Shown here piece by piece: positions 10,474 to 24,056 of a stretch of 44,417 bases of DNA. The position numbers were made by a program, and so were the translations under genes. Below the pieces are notes generated by a model. It searched no databases and was not told where the DNA came from. It worked only from the letters and a program-made list of their open reading frames with translations. This DNA is from Escherichia phage jat, in sequence record NC_073076.1. One strand, given 5' to 3'. How positions within the stretch are numbered: position 1 is the first letter of the stretch; each line of letters starts with the position of its first letter.

Positions 10474-12738
10474 TTAATCTTTTAAGTCGTCGTCGGTCGC
10501 CGAAAGCGTGATTGGTATGCTTGTTTTTATGACGATATTTGACGACCCATAGATGGCCCCGGTGTGCGGATCGGTATAAAAACCGAGTACGCCGCGCTCG
10601 ACCATATCGTCGATTGCCTTCGTCGACGTGCCACCTTTCGCCAGTCCAGCCTGGCGGACAATTGCCGATTTGCTGAATCCGGTATGGTCCGGGTTATCTT
10701 CCATCAGTTTTTCCAGTGCTGCATAAAGCACTTTCTCTTTTTCGTTGCGCGGCCCTGCGGCGTTCTCTTCCTTAACTGCTGCTTTGCCCGCGGCCTTCGC
10801 CTGTTCAATAGCGAACGGTGCCAGGGCAACCGGTACGAGGTAGAGAGTCTCGTCGCGTGGCGTGGAGGCAATCGGCTTGACGTCCCATCCGGCAACCACG
10901 TCGCCGAAGTCTGGCCCGGTGCTGGTGGACTGGTGCACCTCGAACGCTTCTGACTTGCGGAGATCCACCTTCACCTTGCACTTGAGCAGGACGAAGCCGC
11001 GCGGCGCTTGCTTGATGCCGTTACGTGACTTTTCGTGATACAGGTTCAATTGTCCGGGCTGGTTGTCGTCCGGCTGTTCCAGGAAGAACGCAGAATCGAC
11101 AGCACCATGCAGCGCGCCGGATCCGCGTGGGGTTCTGCTGCCGTTGGCACCCTTCGCCGGGTGGTGGATGACGCCCGCACTGCCACCTGTATTTTCCGCA
11201 ATGGCTTTCAGCGCTTTGACCACTTCACCCATATCGCTGGCGTTGTTCTCGTCGAACGGTTTGGCATCGGCGGACCGCAGCGCAACCGTCTGGTTGAGTG
11301 AGTCGAACGCCACCAGGCCAACCGGTTCGCCGTTAGCGGTGCGGTTGATGAAGCTGATAACTTCACGCAAGCCGGATTTGCTGGTGATATCCCAGCCGCG
11401 TGATTGCAGATCGATAATGTGCAGCTTGTCGAGGTCGTGCTCGTATTTGATCTGCAATGCTTCCTTACGCTGGTTGGAGGCTTCGCCACCTTCCGCGTCG
11501 AAATAGAAGCAATGGGACTGGACGACCTTCGCACCGCCGAACGGAATCCCCGCGGCAACCGCACCCATTTGCCCCAGCACGTAGAAAGACTTACCGATAT
11601 TCGACTCACCCGCCATGTACCAGGTCGATTTAAAGTTGACCAGGCCTTCTATGATCGGGTCGTGCTTACTGAACAGCGCAACCGGCTCGTTGTCCAGGTC
11701 AGCGTCGGTACATACGCCGTACTCGTCGCCGTCTCCGACCGCATCAACGATATGTTCATAGCACGATTCCACTTCCTCGTCGTCCAGCCCCGGAAGGATG
11801 GCGGCGATTTGCTTACGTGACATGTTGTGTGGCTCGACGTTCAGGTGGTCCGGGATCCCGATAAGACGTAGCGCCAGGTGCTGGTGTCTGTTCAGTTCCG
11901 AGCAACACTCGTTGCCGGTGTGCATACACTTGAAACGGATCTCGCCATCCTTAACCATGATAGCGGTGGACCCTTCGCCGCTGTGCAGGTGTTCGTTCGG
12001 GCATGGCACTTCATAACCACGACCAGACGACAGCGGTTCGAATCCCGCCTGGAAGCACCAATCCAGAATACCGTCCGCCACACCATCATCGCCCTGGGTC
12101 AGTTCGCGGCGTACTTCCTCTTTCTCGACTCCCAGCTTGTCCGCCAGGCGGAGCAGACGACGGACGCGGGCGCGCTTGCCGTAGTGGCACTTAACGACAG
12201 ACTGCTGATGTGGCAGGTACATAAGGCGGTTTGTGTCTTTTGTACAGTCGTCGAAGTCCACATCTGACAGACCCAGTTGGTGTAATAGTGCATACTGGAC
12301 GCGGCCCAGGTCTTCAGCCGGTACAGGCTTGTCCGTGAGCACCAGGAAACGGGCGCAACGCGTGCCCCCTTTCAGCGGGTGGCGGTCGCCGGTGGTGGTG
12401 TGAAATACGTGTTCCAGACCCGCGTCGATGAACGCCTTACGGCAGCGGCGAAGGGTGCGGGTGTCGGTGCGGTCAATATCGAAGAACAGGATCGAGCGGT
12501 CCACGGCACTGGTCTTGCGGCGCAGCCCATCACTGGTATAAGCCACAATGCCATCAGCCTTACGCTTACGGCGGGCGTACTCGGCTTTATCTTCCGTCTT
12601 GTTGATATGCACCGAGGAGATTTCTTTCGCATCATTGATAAATTCGAAAAACTCTTCGGTAGTCATCTGGAAGTTTTCCGCCCTGGCTTTTTCGCCTTTT
12701 TTAGCGGGTCGTGTTACTGCGAATTTAATTAAGCTCAT
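10474..12738 (-). CDS. primase-helicase (prim-pol-like N-terminus, Zn-ribbon, RecA-like ATPase)
   Basis: 754 aa; DIDRTD acidic motif in N-terminal domain, Cys/His cluster CPNEHLH...CMHTGNEC, Walker A GESNIGKS and Walker B-like LVAFDSL. Confidence 0.7.
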   Translation of the reverse strand: MSLIKFAVTRPAKKGEKARAENFQMTTEEFFEFINDAKEISSVHINKTEDKAEYARRKRKADGIVAYTSDGLRRKTSAVDRSILFFDIDRTDTRTLRRCRKAFIDAGLEHVFHTTTGDRHPLKGGTRCARFLVLTDKPVPAEDLGRVQYALLHQLGLSDVDFDDCTKDTNRLMYLPHQQSVVKCHYGKRARVRRLLRLADKLGVEKEEVRRELTQGDDGVADGILDWCFQAGFEPLSSGRGYEVPCPNEHLHSGEGSTAIMVKDGEIRFKCMHTGNECCSELNRHQHLALRLIGIPDHLNVEPHNMSRKQIAAILPGLDDEEVESCYEHIVDAVGDGDEYGVCTDADLDNEPVALFSKHDPIIEGLVNFKSTWYMAGESNIGKSFYVLGQMGAVAAGIPFGGAKVVQSHCFYFDAEGGEASNQRKEALQIKYEHDLDKLHIIDLQSRGWDITSKSGLREVISFINRTANGEPVGLVAFDSLNQTVALRSADAKPFDENNASDMGEVVKALKAIAENTGGSAGVIHHPAKGANGSRTPRGSGALHGAVDSAFFLEQPDDNQPGQLNLYHEKSRNGIKQAPRGFVLLKCKVKVDLRKSEAFEVHQSTSTGPDFGDVVAGWDVKPIASTPRDETLYLVPVALAPFAIEQAKAAGKAAVKEENAAGPRNEKEKVLYAALEKLMEDNPDHTGFSKSAIVRQAGLAKGGTSTKAIDDMVERGVLGFYTDPHTGAIYGSSNIVIKTSIPITLSATDDDLKD

Positions 12739-12748
12739 TGCCGTTGCC

Positions 12749-13078
12749 TTACTTAGACGTTTTATTATTGCGTACCCATGAGCGCACGGTGCTCTGATTA
12801 ATTCCGGTTAACTCGGCGATCATTGCCCATGACTTTCCCTCATTGCGCAAACGGATAACCTGCTTTTTGTATTCTTCCATTTCTTCATTGTGTTTTTGCA
12901 GCTTGCTTGCTGCCGTGCCGTTGAGCAATTCCAGCTTCGCGGTAAGCTCCTTCTCAGCACGCGATAATCTGGACACTTCAAATAACAGAGTATCCACCGC
13001 ATTTGTGTAATACCAGGATTTACCCGCTTCGCCGCGGATTGCATTAGATAACACTTCAATTGCTTCTTTGATATTCAT
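12749..13078 (-). CDS. HTH DNA-binding protein, putative transcriptional regulator
   Basis: 109 aa; C-terminal HTH GKSWAMIAELTGINQSTVRSWVRN; AGGAGA SD; sits at a divergent regulatory region. Confidence 0.5.
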   Translation of the reverse strand: MNIKEAIEVLSNAIRGEAGKSWYYTNAVDTLLFEVSRLSRAEKELTAKLELLNGTAASKLQKHNEEMEEYKKQVIRLRNEGKSWAMIAELTGINQSTVRSWVRNNKTSK

Positions 13079-13207
13079 AATTCAGTCTCCTGTTGGTTAA
13101 TGACCAACGAAACTACACCCAAAACTGCACGGTGTCAAGTCCTTTGGTTATTGAAACGGGCGCGCACGCGTGTAATAATAATTCCCGTCTCATTGTCTCT
13201 TATTGGT

Positions 13208-13244
13208 TAGCGCCGGTGCATTTTGCCTCGGCGCTTTTTTTTTA
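13208..13244 (+). terminator. rho-independent terminator-like hairpin
   Basis: gcgccg/cggcgc stem (13210-13234) followed by T9. Confidence 0.45.
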
Positions 13245-13253
13245 AATTAGTTG

Positions 13254-13283
13254 TTGACACCCATCCTGCAACCAATCTATCAT
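13254..13283 (+). promoter_or_regulatory. sigma70-like promoter for the early plus-strand genes
   Basis: TTGACA (13254-13259), 18-bp spacer, TATCAT (13278-13283); spacer contains the recurring TGCAACCAAT motif. Confidence 0.4.
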
Positions 13284-13479
13284 TCACTCCGTCGACAGGA
13301 TGCAGGACGCAAACTGGAGAGGGGCAACGCAGGGGCCGGATCGAAGTGTCAGGATTCCCAACCGTGATTATATAACCAGGTCCACTACCCGAACGGGAGA
13401 ACGCGTAACCTGGCAATATGTTAAGGCCACCGACGAAGTTAACTGCCGACACCTAAACTTAACCAATCGGAGATATACC

Positions 13480-13923
13480 ATGTTTGAGCAAATCGTAAAC
13501 CTGATCACTCGCGGCGTAGTAGCACTGGAAGTCATAGCTAAGCATTATGAAACTGCTGGCGCTGCCGTTGGTAAGCAGGAAGACAAGAAGCCGTCTAAGT
13601 CCAAAAAAGAAGTCGTAGAAGATGACGACGACGAAGACGAAAAACCGGCTAAATCTAAAAAAGCACCGGCTAAATCTAAAAAAGCACCGGCGAAAGGCAA
13701 AGGTAAGAAAGATGCCGATCCGCTGGCAGAGATGCGCGACGAAATCAAACAGTATGCCGCGATTATTGCCGGTGGCGATGATGACGACGCGAACGACGAA
13801 TTTGATGACCTGCTGGAAGCGTTCGAGATCAAATCAATCGCCAAGCTGGAAGATGACGACGTCGAAGACTTCCACAAAGAGCTAAAAGAAATCGTCGAAA
13901 CTTATTTCGAACTGGAAGATTAA
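13480..13923 (+). CDS. low-complexity protein with Lys-rich AKSKKAPAK repeats and strongly acidic C-terminal half
   Basis: 147 aa from ATG 13480 (GGAGA SD); track ORF starts earlier at 13300 but without SD; runs of D/E (DDDDEDE, DDDDANDEFDD, EDDDVED). Confidence 0.5.
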   Translation: MFEQIVNLITRGVVALEVIAKHYETAGAAVGKQEDKKPSKSKKEVVEDDDDEDEKPAKSKKAPAKSKKAPAKGKGKKDADPLAEMRDEIKQYAAIIAGGDDDDANDEFDDLLEAFEIKSIAKLEDDDVEDFHKELKEIVETYFELED

Positions 13924-13927
13924 TATC

Positions 13928-14053
13928 ATGGACTATGAAATGAGAATCATGCTCGATTTCATAGCGGAAAATTGGGCGGCATTCACCGCCTTCTGCGAAG
14001 AAAGAGGCGACGACCCGGACGAGGTTTATAGACAACTCGGCGGTGAAGATTAA
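13928..14053 (+). CDS. small acidic hypothetical protein (41 aa)
   Basis: MDYEMRIMLDFIAENWAAFTAFCEERGDDPDEVYRQLGGED; followed immediately by terminator. Confidence 0.3.
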   Translation: MDYEMRIMLDFIAENWAAFTAFCEERGDDPDEVYRQLGGED

Positions 14054-14059
14054 TATTAT

Positions 14060-14089
14060 CCGGCCCGCTAATCTGCGGGCCTATTTTTA
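14060..14089 (+). terminator. rho-independent terminator
   Basis: ggcccgc/gcgggcc stem with taatct loop followed by TATTTTT. Confidence 0.5.
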
Positions 14090-20351: not shown

Positions 20352-21780
20352 AGAAATGGCACGATTCCGACGCCGCGAATATCAGAAGTTGATAACCGCG
20401 TTCATCCTCAAGCATAAGCGCTGCAATATTTGGGCGACAATGGGGTCGGGTAAAACCGGCGCGACCATGTGGGCGCTGAATAAAATGTTCCAGACCGGCA
20501 TCCTGTCCAACCAGGATGACCGCGTACTGGTGCTGGCCCCGCTGCGCGTTGCGTCCGGTACATGGCCCCCGGAACAGGAGAAATGGCGCTTCCCAGCCTT
20601 GCTGGTAGTAGACGGCACTGGGTCAGAGAAGGACCGCATCGCTGCGCTTGAGAGCGACGCTAACGTGGTTTGTATTAACTATGATGTAGTTGAGTGGCTT
20701 GTCGAGTATTGCGGCGACGAGTGGCCCTTTACGGTCGTGGTTGCCGATGAATCCACTAAGCTGAAAGGATATAGAAGCAAGCAGGGAAGTAAGCGCGCCC
20801 GTGCGCTGGCAGCGATCGCACATAAGCACGTCAAGCGCTGGATTAACCTTACCGGCACACCCGCACCGAACGGGCTGAAAGACCTATGGGGCCAGACGTG
20901 GTTTGTCGACGGCGGCGAACGCCTCGGCAGTAGCTATAAGGCGTTCACGGACCGCTGGTTTATTAGCAAGCCTGTTAAGCCTGGCAGCTTCACGATGCAG
21001 CACGCCCCGCTTAAGAACTCCGAGAAAGAAATACAACAACGTCTGTCAGATGTATCCCTCACCGTTGACGCGGCGGAATACTTCGGGTGCGACAAGCCAA
21101 TCTATACGCCGGTTGTTGTGGACCTGCCGAAGAAAGCGCGCAAGATTTATGACCAGTTTGAAAGCGAGCTATTTGCCGAACTGGAAAGCGGAACAGTGGA
21201 AGCGGCGAACGCGGCATCGAAGACAATTAAGTGCCTTCAGCTTGCATCCGGGGCCGTGTATAAGGTGGACGAAGACGGCGAACGGACCGACGAGTGGGTG
21301 AAGATTCACGACGCGAAGCTGGACGCGCTGGAAAGTATCGTGGAGGAGTTGAACGGTGCGCCGTTGCTCGTTGCGTATCAGTACAAGCATGACCTGGCAC
21401 GTCTTAAGAAGAAATTTCCGCACGGCGTTGCGCTGGGTAAAGGTAAGCAGGGAAATAAGGATATGGAAGCGTGGAACAGAGGCGAGATCCCCATCATGTT
21501 TGCGCACCCGGCATCGGCGGGCCACGGCCTTAACTTGCAGGACGGCGGTCATCACCTGGCAATCTTCTCCGATACCTGGAACTTTGAGCACTTTTCGCAG
21601 ATCGTTGAACGTATCGGGCCGGTTCGCCAGATGCAAGCAGGACACCCCCGTCCGGTATTCGTCTACATTATCCAGGCGCGCGGAACACTGGACGAACTGG
21701 TCGCCGAGCGTCGCGACAGTAAGCGGGATATTCAGGACGACTTGATGGAATACATGAAAGCTAAGAAGGCGCGCAAATGA
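20320..21780 (+). CDS. SNF2-family helicase / ATPase
   Basis: 486 aa; Walker A-like GSGKTG, DEAH-like VVADESTKLK; probable true start ATG 20356 (MARFRRREYQ) after SD. Confidence 0.75.
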   Translation: MKPKSGKRRNKEMARFRRREYQKLITAFILKHKRCNIWATMGSGKTGATMWALNKMFQTGILSNQDDRVLVLAPLRVASGTWPPEQEKWRFPALLVVDGTGSEKDRIAALESDANVVCINYDVVEWLVEYCGDEWPFTVVVADESTKLKGYRSKQGSKRARALAAIAHKHVKRWINLTGTPAPNGLKDLWGQTWFVDGGERLGSSYKAFTDRWFISKPVKPGSFTMQHAPLKNSEKEIQQRLSDVSLTVDAAEYFGCDKPIYTPVVVDLPKKARKIYDQFESELFAELESGTVEAANAASKTIKCLQLASGAVYKVDEDGERTDEWVKIHDAKLDALESIVEELNGAPLLVAYQYKHDLARLKKKFPHGVALGKGKQGNKDMEAWNRGEIPIMFAHPASAGHGLNLQDGGHHLAIFSDTWNFEHFSQIVERIGPVRQMQAGHPRPVFVYIIQARGTLDELVAERRDSKRDIQDDLMEYMKAKKARK

Positions 21781-22472
21781 TAATCTGGTCATTGTTTGAC
21801 GGCAGCGGCTTGATGATTGAGCGTGCTGCCGAGATGGGGCATAAGTGTTATTGCTTCAACTATTCCGAAGCCGATCACGGGTCTTACCTTGACTACCGGA
21901 TTTATGGTCGCGGAATCCGATATCGCAATGAGTTTATAGATATGGACTTTGTGGACCGCGCGATGAATGGCGATTTCGGTACGCCGGATATCATCTATGC
22001 ATTCCCTCCGTGTACGGATCTGGCAGTGAGCGGCGCGCCAGCTTTCCCGCGCAAGCGTGCGAAAGACCCAGCCTTTCAGCTTAAGGCGGTGCGCACCGCG
22101 AAGATCGCCGCTTACCTGGGTGACTTCTTCGAAGTGCCATATATGATTGAGAATCCGCGCAGTGTGCTCTCCACCCAGTGGCGCAAGCCAGACCACTCGT
22201 TTGATCCGTGGGAGTATGGGGGCTATCTGCCGGAGGATGACGTACACCCGCTCTTCCCGGAATACATCAACGCCCGCGATTCATATCCGAAGCGGACCTG
22301 CTTATGGACCGGCAACGGCTTTCGTATGCCAGAGAAAAAGCCTGTATTCGTTGAAAAAGGGTACTCGAAGCAGTATAGTCGCCTCGGAGGCAAATCAGCC
22401 CGCACCAAATTAATCCGGTCGCTCACCCCGCGCGGCTTCGCGATAGCGGTCAATGAGGAAAATTTAAAATGA
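21777..22472 (+). CDS. C5-cytosine methyltransferase-like protein (compact)
   Basis: 231 aa; motif I-like LFDGSG, motif IV-like FPPCTDLAVSGA (Pro-Cys), motif VI-like ENP; ATGA overlap with helicase stop. Confidence 0.45.
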   Translation: MIIWSLFDGSGLMIERAAEMGHKCYCFNYSEADHGSYLDYRIYGRGIRYRNEFIDMDFVDRAMNGDFGTPDIIYAFPPCTDLAVSGAPAFPRKRAKDPAFQLKAVRTAKIAAYLGDFFEVPYMIENPRSVLSTQWRKPDHSFDPWEYGGYLPEDDVHPLFPEYINARDSYPKRTCLWTGNGFRMPEKKPVFVEKGYSKQYSRLGGKSARTKLIRSLTPRGFAIAVNEENLK

Positions 22473-23119: not shown

Positions 23120-23584
23120 ATGAAAATTTTACAAGAAGAGAAAAATTACTGGGCTGCGCAATGCCTCGAAGCCCGCGAACAGGCCGAACGTGCGAACGCG
23201 CTGGCAGATACCTACCTGTCAAGCTATGAAACGGAAGAAAAGCGCCGCATGGAGTTAGAGGAGCGCTTCGAACTGCTTTTCGAATTGATGGGGATTATGC
23301 AGCGCACCGGATATACAACCAGCGTTGCACTAAACCGCGTCACGGCTGATGCGTTGCGGGAGCACTGTAAACGTGCGGAGGAGTACGTGCGCCCGAAGGG
23401 CCGCCAGTCTTCGATCGCCCGGAAAGACCTTGTGCTTATGGCGTGGCGCAACCCTACAAACGGCAGCTTCTACCCGGACGCGCGCCCGCTTAGCGCCGAG
23501 GAATCAAAGCGCGTGCAGCGCGTCATCAAAAAAGGCGATAAGATCCCACTTTATGCGATAGACACCGACCATGACGAAGAATGA
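23120..23584 (+). CDS. hypothetical protein
   Basis: 154 aa, charged, coiled-coil-like N-terminus. Confidence 0.45.
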   Translation: MKILQEEKNYWAAQCLEAREQAERANALADTYLSSYETEEKRRMELEERFELLFELMGIMQRTGYTTSVALNRVTADALREHCKRAEEYVRPKGRQSSIARKDLVLMAWRNPTNGSFYPDARPLSAEESKRVQRVIKKGDKIPLYAIDTDHDEE

Positions 23585-24056
23585 GCAGAAAGATAGCTGG
23601 CGCACACCGCCAGCTTTATTTAAACCGCTTCGTCGGAAGTACCGATTCCGTTACGATATGGCGGCGAGCGACGCCAACCACCTGCTACCGCGTTACTTCA
23701 CGGCAGAGCACAGCGCGCTTGATGTGGACTGGGCAGAGTTGAAAGGGTGGAAGTGGTGCAATCCGCCGTATTCCGACCCGCTGCCGTGGGTGGAATGCGC
23801 AGCGCACGGACGCCGGACTGTCATGCTACTGAACCAGGACACGTCGACGAAGTGGGCGAAGCTGGCCCGGAAGACTGCAAACCTGATAATTCTTCTGGAC
23901 TGGCGGATTAGATTCATTCACGCCGTCACCGGCGAAGTCGGGCCGAGCAATAACAAGTGCCAGCAATTGATAATCTTTGACGAAGCGCCGCCAATCGGCA
24001 GCGCACGAATTGAAATAATGAGCGAAGGAGAACTCCTTGAATATCTTAATCGTTGA
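23571..24056 (+). CDS. DNA N6-adenine methyltransferase (phage Dam-type)
   Basis: 161 aa; SWRTPPALF...DMAASDANHL...WCNPPYS signature of phage Dam methyltransferases. Confidence 0.8.
   Translation: MTKNEQKDSWRTPPALFKPLRRKYRFRYDMAASDANHLLPRYFTAEHSALDVDWAELKGWKWCNPPYSDPLPWVECAAHGRRTVMLLNQDTSTKWAKLARKTANLIILLDWRIRFIHAVTGEVGPSNNKCQQLIIFDEAPPIGSARIEIMSEGELLEYLNR

Follow-up and report, generated by a model that had tools for sequence, protein, structure and literature searches.

Positions 13254-14089 of the genome of Escherichia phage jat (NC_073076.1; the window analyzed here is the whole stretch of 44,417 nucleotides [nt], read 5' to 3' on one strand) lie in the divergent control region of the phage. 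Jat belongs to the genus Dhillonvirus, and ~170 Dhillonvirus genomes match the region at 91 to 97% identity. An earlier note on this DNA had described the interval as a first early transcription unit in which a near-consensus promoter drives a 147-amino-acid (aa) acidic protein, followed by an acidic open reading frame (ORF) of 41 aa and a clean terminator. We found the promoter, both ORFs and the terminator in that order, together with a conserved structured RNA in the leader between the promoter and the 147-aa ORF (gp19). The features are as follows.

13254-13283, plus strand: sigma-70 promoter, TTGACA-18-TATCAT, 11 of 12 consensus matches
13288-13454, plus strand: conserved structured 5' leader RNA (covariance model R1, 153 bits, E 6e-35)
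13469-13472, plus strand: Shine-Dalgarno (SD) sequence GGAG, 7 nt ahead of the ATG at 13480
13480-13923, plus strand: gp19 (jat_19), 147 aa, phrog_3127, 100% identical to "hypothetical protein jat_19"
13928-14053, plus strand: accessory acidic 41-aa ORF (phrog_15754, E 1e-24), between gp19 and the terminator
14062-14089, plus strand: intrinsic terminator, stem at 14062-14081 with seven G-C pairs and a 6-nt loop, then TATTTTT

The promoter is the sole match of at least 11/12 to the sigma-70 consensus on either strand of the 44.4-kb genome, compared with an expected count of 0.35 in first-order Markov simulated sequences. It is kept across Dhillonviruses with a spacer of 17 or 18 nt, the HK578 record carries a promoter annotation at the same site, and transcription would begin at ~13290. 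The terminator is a G+C-rich hairpin followed by a U tract, and the CS16 and PTXU06 records each carry an independent annotation of it; from there to position 22351, the plus strand is free of promoter-like sites of 10/12 or better. The order of promoter and gp19 was thus as the earlier note had it, but the promoter does not drive gp19 directly, as 196 nt separate its -10 hexamer from the gp19 ATG and the structured RNA lies between them. The labels "first" and "early," as applied to this unit, follow from its position.

RNAalifold and manual inspection gave a fold for the leader in which a three-way junction bears two hairpins, P3 and P4. Its parts are as follows.

13291-13298 with 13443-13450, plus strand: closing helix P1
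13302-13310, plus strand: GGA-loop hairpin
13313-13314 with 13438-13439, plus strand: helix P1b
13321-13325 with 13426-13431, plus strand: helix P2
13327-13365, plus strand: hairpin P3, invariant
13369-13420, plus strand: long interrupted hairpin P4

Covariation was counted on the R1 model alignment of 26 sequences, with partners slid by 1 to 3 columns as the control. Standard pairs were formed in 94.4% of the cells, compared with 31 to 42% for slid partners; compensatory changes on both sides were seen at 22 of 40 pairs, compared with 3 to 8; and the covariation score was 0.38, compared with 0.02 to 0.07, a value that none of 500 shuffles reached. One G-U pair, which fits only the plus (transcribed) strand, was kept in 25 of the 26 sequences. 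Compensatory changes in excess of the controls, on one strand only, are the pattern by which structured RNAs are generally recognized. One P4 pair occurs in three forms within Dhillonvirus alone (CCAGG/CCUGG, CCUGG/CCAGG, and CCCGG/CCGGG, that is, A-U, U-A, and C-G), and P1 is known in at least five sequence versions, including GUCGACAG/CUGCCGAC in jat, GGGCGGCG/CGCCGCCC in Lumpael, GACGGGC/GCCCGUC in slyngel, and GACGG/CCGUC in KMI8. Between the variable stretches, the alignment holds long invariant blocks (GGAGAGG, ACGCAGGGGC, GGATTCCCAACCGTGA, CACT, AGAACGC, and CCGACGA), which fall in junctions and loops between the covarying stems, and a candidate loop-to-internal-loop pairing, AGUG/CACU, is invariant on both sides. 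Stems that covary around junctions that do not change point to a specific tertiary fold or a specific binding surface. The R1 covariance model found one copy per locus, at 147 to 200 bits, and a single copy in the jat genome.

Rfam 15 (4,227 families) gave zero hits at an E value of ≤10 for the plus strand of 13288-13454 of jat and zero hits at the same cutoff for the L012 copy of the RNA, and a search of the whole jat genome gave zero hits at the gathering score. ARAGORN predicted neither a tRNA nor a tmRNA. In the literature that we found on transcription in Dhillonvirus, on RNAs of the put type, and on structured RNAs of Drexlerviridae, neither the leader element nor gp19 was described. Likenesses seen by eye to the cores of the FMN, glycine, and cobalamin riboswitches, the sarcin-ricin loop, the kink-turn, and boxA had no backing from any tool and were dropped.

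In distant BLASTN comparisons, phages of other taxa matched only within 13302-13462, such that the similarity between genera was limited to the element. The carriers found in this way were slyngel (Hanrivervirus), JLBYU07 (Warwickvirus), Lumpael (Murrayvirus), IME279 (Sortsnevirus), and KMI8, and further searches extended the list to Arya and PT1, both of the genus Jilinvirus, and to Alux-21, which is unclassified. The element is therefore present, in one copy per genome, in six genera (Dhillonvirus, Hanrivervirus, Warwickvirus, Murrayvirus, Sortsnevirus, and Jilinvirus); of 50,697 phage records, 168 contained it, and only a minority of Drexlerviridae carry it. In a metagenome search with a 21-base pattern, all 16 of the 16 hits were true elements. 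The element was not found in 5,426 complete Escherichia coli genomes, and a 16-mer scan of bacterial genome contigs was dominated by chance, with only 1 of 120 hits being true and lying on a phage-like contig. The gapped pattern AGAACGC...GGCNNCCGACGA proved too loose as a search for the element. Three related high-GC IMG/VR contigs of 29 to 81 kb (L158-L160) share the 21-mer ACGCAGGGGC...ATCG.AGT and also hold AGAACGC, GACGAA, and GGATTGCCC nearby. We did not count them as members, since they scored only 12.7 bits with the R1 model despite the common 21-mer; judged by sequence, the resemblance is probably due to chance, the alternative being a very distant variant.

In each of the carriers named above, the element occupies an intergenic gap of ~230 to 700 nt on the same strand as the flanking genes, and in all but one of the BLASTN-hit records the matched stretch has no annotated feature. 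In every lineage a -10-like hexamer ends 6 to 8 nt upstream of the element, often with a good -35 sequence as well (e.g., TTGACA-17-TATAGT in L016), so that P1 starts within a few nucleotides of the transcript 5' end. At the other side, an SD-bearing ORF always starts 25 to 60 nt past the element and its P1 helix. The ORFs downstream are mutually unrelated, fall into different PHROGs, and have no annotated function. Conversely, relatives of gp19 at ~40% identity occupy the same genomic position behind a short leader that lacks the RNA element, and the RNA and gp19 are therefore independent modules. What recurs is a promoter-plus-RNA cassette, common to unrelated enterobacterial siphophage genera and placed ahead of unrelated ORFs.

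Most lineages outside Dhillonvirus show the element in a short self-contained unit composed of the promoter, the RNA, ORFs, and a terminator, and a strong intrinsic terminator lies 0.5 to 2 kb past the element in L016, L022, L281, L033, L032, L019, L012, and L013. In slyngel, Lumpael, IME279, and L286, no intrinsic terminator was found within 2.4 to 3 kb downstream of the element.

The second component of the unit, gp19, is an ordinary member of phrog_3127, a PHROGs family without an assigned function that includes Sodalis phage SO-1 gp46, HK578_044, and Edwardsiella phage eiAU Gp46. The profile match was full length (E 4.2e-48, 165 bits) and was the only family match of gp19, and the other members share its three-part architecture and its genomic position. 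A Pfam scan at an E value of ≤1 returned only four unrelated subthreshold families, and a profile search of Protein Data Bank (PDB) sequences returned nothing at an E value of ≤10. An exhaustive profile search of 1.84 billion proteins yielded 62 clusters at 50% identity, all of 31 to 239 aa, most of them full length, and with the same layout. The protein is found only in phages. It contains 41 Asp and Glu residues compared with 25 Lys and Arg residues (net charge, -16; pI, 4.6), distributed over three parts.

13480-13572, plus strand: N-terminal amphipathic helix, aa 1-31
13573-13710, plus strand: hypervariable charge-mixed spacer, aa 32-77, holding a K/A/P repeat and a D/E run
13711-13920, plus strand: acidic three-helix bundle, aa 78-147, net charge of -21 over 70 residues

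The earlier note had singled out the Lys-rich repeat and, from it, a histone-tail-like character. The repeat is real (a 21-nt tandem repeat in 2.5 copies at 13644-13695) but is not a conserved feature of the family. In 139 homologs, the length of the spacer varied between 0 and 99 aa and its net charge between -13 and +6 (median, -2); the spacer gains and loses repeats even between near-identical phages and is almost absent in the 115-aa homolog P0097. The conserved net-positive K/A/P segment of a histone H1-like tail was thus not found in these homologs, and what the note called histone-tail-like is a nonconserved tether, not the core of the protein's function. By this comparison, the spacer would be dispensable and would serve only as a flexible tether. 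The description of gp19 as a low-complexity acidic protein holds for residues 32 to 77, whereas the acidic part is a conserved domain with a confidently predicted fold.

Conservation lies on either side of the spacer. In the N-terminal helix, L8, R11, V13, V14, A15, E17, and A20 are invariant in 16 homologs down to 43% identity, and the C-terminal domain, with a family median net charge of -18, has many invariant acidic and hydrophobic positions. Codon position 3 holds 33 of the 38 variable sites in the C-terminal domain and 10 of the 14 in the N-terminal helix, and the bias in the former indicates clear purifying selection. AlphaFold2 (AF2) modeling of the C-terminal domain with 36 sequences predicted a three-helix bundle with helices at domain residues 4 to 21, 25 to 37, and 48 to 65 (predicted local distance difference test score [pLDDT], 89.7; predicted template modeling score [pTM], 0.74). 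In the full-length model, a helix at residues 2 to 24 (low confidence) is followed by disorder over residues 25 to 80 (spacer pLDDT of <50) and then by the three helices. The lysine repeats are not among the conserved functional parts of gp19, which are the N-terminal helix and the acidic bundle.

The gp19 gene is the first of the replication operon, beside the divergent primase/helicase gene, even in relatives at 38 to 44% identity with a different leader, and its synteny takes in the primase/helicase, the exonuclease, the Gp2.5-like single-stranded DNA-binding protein (SSB), and DNA polymerase A (PolA). This ties gp19 to the replication module, and the conserved synteny fits a replication/recombination accessory role as well as it fits a host takeover decoy. 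When cultures infected with the Dhillonvirus EE09 were examined by proteomics at 25 min, only four phage proteins were detected, one of which was CDS56 (PMC10673088). We verified CDS56 as the gp19 ortholog (83% identity apart from a spacer indel), and its detection by mass spectrometry indicates that the protein is made and is probably abundant.

The best of the readings considered, although a tentative one on which we would not insist, is a joint one in which the rightward early/replication operon of a Dhillonvirus begins with this interval, the RNA works in cis as a leader, and gp19 is an acidic binder. The RNA would act as a 5' leader that sets the output of whichever early genes follow it, either through binding to a conserved component of the host, which may be RNA polymerase, the ribosome, an RNA-binding protein (e.g., CsrA), or a small ligand, or through protection of the transcript at its 5' end, or both. 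It would not be a metabolite switch tied to the function of one gene. The leader resembles riboswitch aptamers and other structured 5' leaders in its covarying stems, invariant junctions, and closing P1 helix and in its location between a promoter and an SD sequence, but no expression platform was recognized in it. Nor was there a consistent association with one pathway, as the downstream ORFs belong to different PHROGs; because these genes are unrelated, no ligand can be inferred for the leader, and the independence of the element from the gene that follows argues against a pathway-specific riboswitch. It favors instead a generic role in cis or else a role in trans, such as transcript stability, translation, modification of RNA polymerase, or capture of a host factor. 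In our ranking, a cis-acting leader comes ahead of a trans-acting accessory RNA, which is followed by antitermination and, at the bottom, by a role at the level of replication.

Several points weigh against this joint reading. The 26 sequences represent only ~6 to 7 independent lineages, the alignment used to count pairs had itself been fitted to the R1 model, and the minimum free energy (MFE) fold of the single sequence was no better than that of shuffled sequences (z score, +0.99), so that the claim of structure rests on covariation. No expression platform was found and no terminator follows P1, and both the mobility of the element as a self-contained cassette and the terminator 0.5 to 2 kb downstream in most lineages would fit a trans-acting accessory RNA equally well. 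As for gp19, the full-length AF2 model was poor (pLDDT of 51), and the C-terminal domain, a helical bundle of a generic kind, had no informative neighbor in structural comparisons. Sequestration of the SD sequence was also considered and rejected, as the 5-bp pairing of the extreme 5' end with the SD sequence was present in jat only and not in HK578 or the other lineages.

A role in trans, in which a stable noncoding RNA sequesters a host factor or a defense component and moves between phages as an accessory cassette, is less probable. The promoter-plus-RNA unit lies at differing genome positions in the six genera, with similarity limited to the element; its carriers are a minority of Drexlerviridae; and the downstream terminator of most lineages gives it the appearance of a promoter-to-terminator accessory unit. 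A CAGGAU motif occurs twice in the leader (13298-13304 and 13347-13353), invariant in all lineages and in one case displayed as a GGA hairpin loop. The CsrA-binding consensus, which is the repeat of CsrB, resembles CAGGAU with a GGA loop, and by this analogy the two motifs may favor a trans-acting RNA of the CsrB kind. The leader differs from CsrB in having only two such sites, set within a far more elaborate conserved fold, and the CsrB and CsrC families of Rfam had no hit in it. Other features argue against an independent RNA: neither a terminator nor a known processing site directly follows the element, and an ORF with an SD sequence always begins 25 to 60 nt downstream.

Processive antitermination of the put type is an unlikely role for the leader; in this case the RNA would modify E. 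coli RNA polymerase in cis, and transcription would pass the terminator at 14062 and enter the replication genes. The put RNAs start at the transcription start of an early promoter and are ~70 nt long, with two hairpins. The leader shares with HK022 put a structured nature and a place at the start of an early phage transcript, immediately downstream of the promoter (with the -10 hexamer 6 to 8 nt before it), and jat has a strong terminator 608 nt farther on. The genes for the exonuclease, SSB, and polymerase all lie before the next plus-strand promoter-like site of at least 10/12, at 22351, and the element is indifferent to which ORFs follow. The leader, however, is ~165 nt long, has a closing helix and a multihelix (three-way) junction, and is present in one copy per genome, which is unlike put. 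There is a terminator to read through in jat but no intrinsic one within 2.4 to 3 kb in four lineages (slyngel, Lumpael, IME279, and L286), and elsewhere the terminator has the look of a short cassette's natural end and may simply close the unit.

That the element works at the level of DNA or replication, as an origin or a structured primer RNA made from the promoter, is very improbable. It lies in the divergent region beside the primase/helicase gene in Dhillonvirus and directly follows the primase gene in Jilinvirus, its 5' half is G rich, and cumulative GC skew passes through a local minimum at 12 to 14 kb. The skew minimum is uninformative because it coincides with the switch of coding strand; in Tempevirinae and Murrayvirus the element lies among small early ORFs; and the conserved G-U pair argues for the folding of RNA and not for duplex DNA.

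The least credible alternative, for which we see next to no chance, is that the leader is coding and the true product is a 207-aa ORF starting at ATG 13300, as annotated in several GenBank records. The frame from 13300 does stay open in Dhillonviruses, and starts of this type are annotated in PEC9 (PEC9_54), Teewinot (gp47), Opt212 (gp20), and EE09 (EE09_56), giving products of 207 to 232 aa, but the same frame meets a TAG after 12 codons in the non-Dhillonvirus copies of the element. The 14 variable sites among the 167 positions of the leader fall 4/3/7 on the three codon positions, with no periodicity, compared with 4/1/33 in the C-terminal domain of gp19, and 8% of leader sites vary compared with 18% in the adjacent coding sequence. 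The covariation in the leader tracks RNA helices, relatives without the RNA element start at the Met equivalent to 13480, and the GGAG 7 nt upstream supports the 13480 start over the in-frame ATG at 13300. We rejected the 207-aa ORF because of the TAG in other lineages and the lack of codon periodicity and concluded that the upstream extension to 207 to 232 aa is very likely a misannotation, one that the structured leader explains in many GenBank records.

With respect to gp19, the joint reading holds that it is a nonenzymatic, stoichiometric binder. The acidic bundle would be the part that contacts a basic partner, probably one that binds DNA; the N-terminal helix would oligomerize or anchor gp19; and the K-rich repeats would be a flexible tether only; the protein would act in or alongside the replication/recombination module. 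Charge mimicry toward a basic partner other than a restriction enzyme is our working model, with RecBCD, a nucleoid protein, and a phage replication protein as candidate partners; a role as a replisome adaptor is about equally likely.

The adaptor alternative, which we regard as doubtful but plausible in light of the invariant synteny, is that gp19 is a replisome or recombination accessory or scaffold, for example one that links primase/helicase, SSB, and polymerase, and that it is not directed at the host at all. Its gene is strictly the first of the replication operon and is kept beside the divergent primase/helicase gene at 38 to 44% identity, and a layout of helix, tether, and domain would be typical of adaptors. 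On the other hand, an extremely acidic domain on a dispensable tether corresponds to no known replisome component, and homology, as judged by the Pfam and PDB profile searches, lends this role no support.

Somewhat less probable is that gp19 is a decoy for another DNA-handling protein of the host, either a RecBCD inhibitor like Gam or gp5.9 or a binder of a nucleoid protein such as H-NS or HU. Such a decoy would keep the phage DNA protected, or set it free, while it replicates. Both gam of lambda and 5.9 of T7 are situated beside recombination genes. Like lambda Gam and T7 gp5.9, gp19 is a small, acidic, helical protein encoded next to an exonuclease and a single-strand annealing/SSB gene (here the Gp2.5-like annealing protein), its folded acidic domain has invariant Asp and Glu positions, its ortholog is probably abundant, and no recognizable Gam-type gene was present among the operon proteins scanned. 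It has no detectable sequence or fold similarity to Gam or gp5.9, however, and Pfam, PDB profile, and structural comparisons revealed no similarity to any known inhibitor.

The principal idea of the earlier note, that gp19 is a DNA mimic of the Ocr/ArdA type that blocks type I restriction, now appears improbable. Like T7 Ocr (gp0.3) and ArdA, gp19 is very acidic and is probably early, strongly expressed, and nonenzymatic: it has a net charge of -16 overall and -21 in a C-terminal domain with invariant acidic positions, lies behind the strongest promoter of the genome, and has a probably abundant ortholog in infection. No Pfam family above the cutoff and no PDB profile match at an E value of ≤10 connected it to these proteins, and it differs in being modular (helix, tether, and small bundle) and embedded in a replication operon. 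Structure prediction, which had been suggested as a check for a DNA-like charge distribution, did give a confident C-terminal bundle with a net charge of -21 but revealed no fold link to Ocr, ArdA, or Gam; the elongated dimer mimicking bent B-DNA that characterizes the Ocr/ArdA fold was not recognized in gp19. Membership in the Ocr/ArdA type thus fails on both sequence and fold. In addition, the BASEL study described Dhillonvirus phages, which carry gp19 orthologs, as sensitive to type I and II restriction-modification (R-M) systems compared with Queuovirinae (PMC8594841). Dhillonviruses are not notably R-M resistant. Taken together, these results disfavor the Ocr/ArdA form of DNA mimicry and neither support nor exclude DNA mimicry by gp19 in general, nor do they decide on the wider suggestions of the earlier note, an antirestriction factor or a mimic of nucleoid proteins.

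A bolder form of the joint reading, which is possible but which we advance with more reserve, is that the leader represents a new class of phage-borne functional RNA (an aptamer or riboregulator for a host component or a trans-acting host takeover or antidefense RNA) that spreads horizontally between enterobacterial siphophages as a promoter-plus-RNA cassette and that gp19 is a new kind of tethered acidic decoy. In any reading, a highly conserved, covarying RNA that begins the transcript of the strongest promoter, that several genera share, and that Rfam lacks is a concrete and testable candidate for a regulatory or host interaction element. Dhillonviruses and T1-like phages are among the coliphages most often isolated and are represented in the BASEL collection and among therapy candidates.

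To the left of the interval are the two genes listed here.

12749-13078, leftward: helix-turn-helix (HTH) gene
10474-12738: primase/helicase gene

The rightward operon encodes a PD-(D/E)XK/DUF2800 exonuclease, the Gp2.5-like SSB/annealing protein, PolA, a helicase, two DNA methyltransferases, and others. The methyltransferase genes lie at 21777-22469 and 23571-24053 (phrog_757 and phrog_111), and these enzymes of the phage's own are a more conventional route to antirestriction than gp19. Of 18 Dhillonvirus loci sampled, only 3 contained the 41-aa ORF, and HK578 lacks it; on sequence grounds, this predicted ORF is an accessory insertion subject to presence and absence.

Two further promoter-like sites were noted on the plus strand. 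One, within 13151-13248, reads TTGAAA-17-AATAAT with an upstream TG (10/12), and ~30 nt past it is a strong plus-strand terminator with the stem GCGCCGG.../...CGGCGC followed by nine T residues; the terminator fold in 13151-13248 has an energy of -16.9 kcal/mol (z score, -3.5). This segment would yield a transcript of ~60 nt, resembling a small RNA, between the divergent early promoters, and the HK578 record annotates both plus-strand promoters, this one and that at 13254. The other is a weak site, TAGACA-16-TAATAT (9/12), at 14029-14057, which ends right before the terminator stem at 14062-14081. Since transcription from this site would start inside the hairpin, the transcript would escape termination, and the site is a possible alternative route to the expression of the downstream replication genes.

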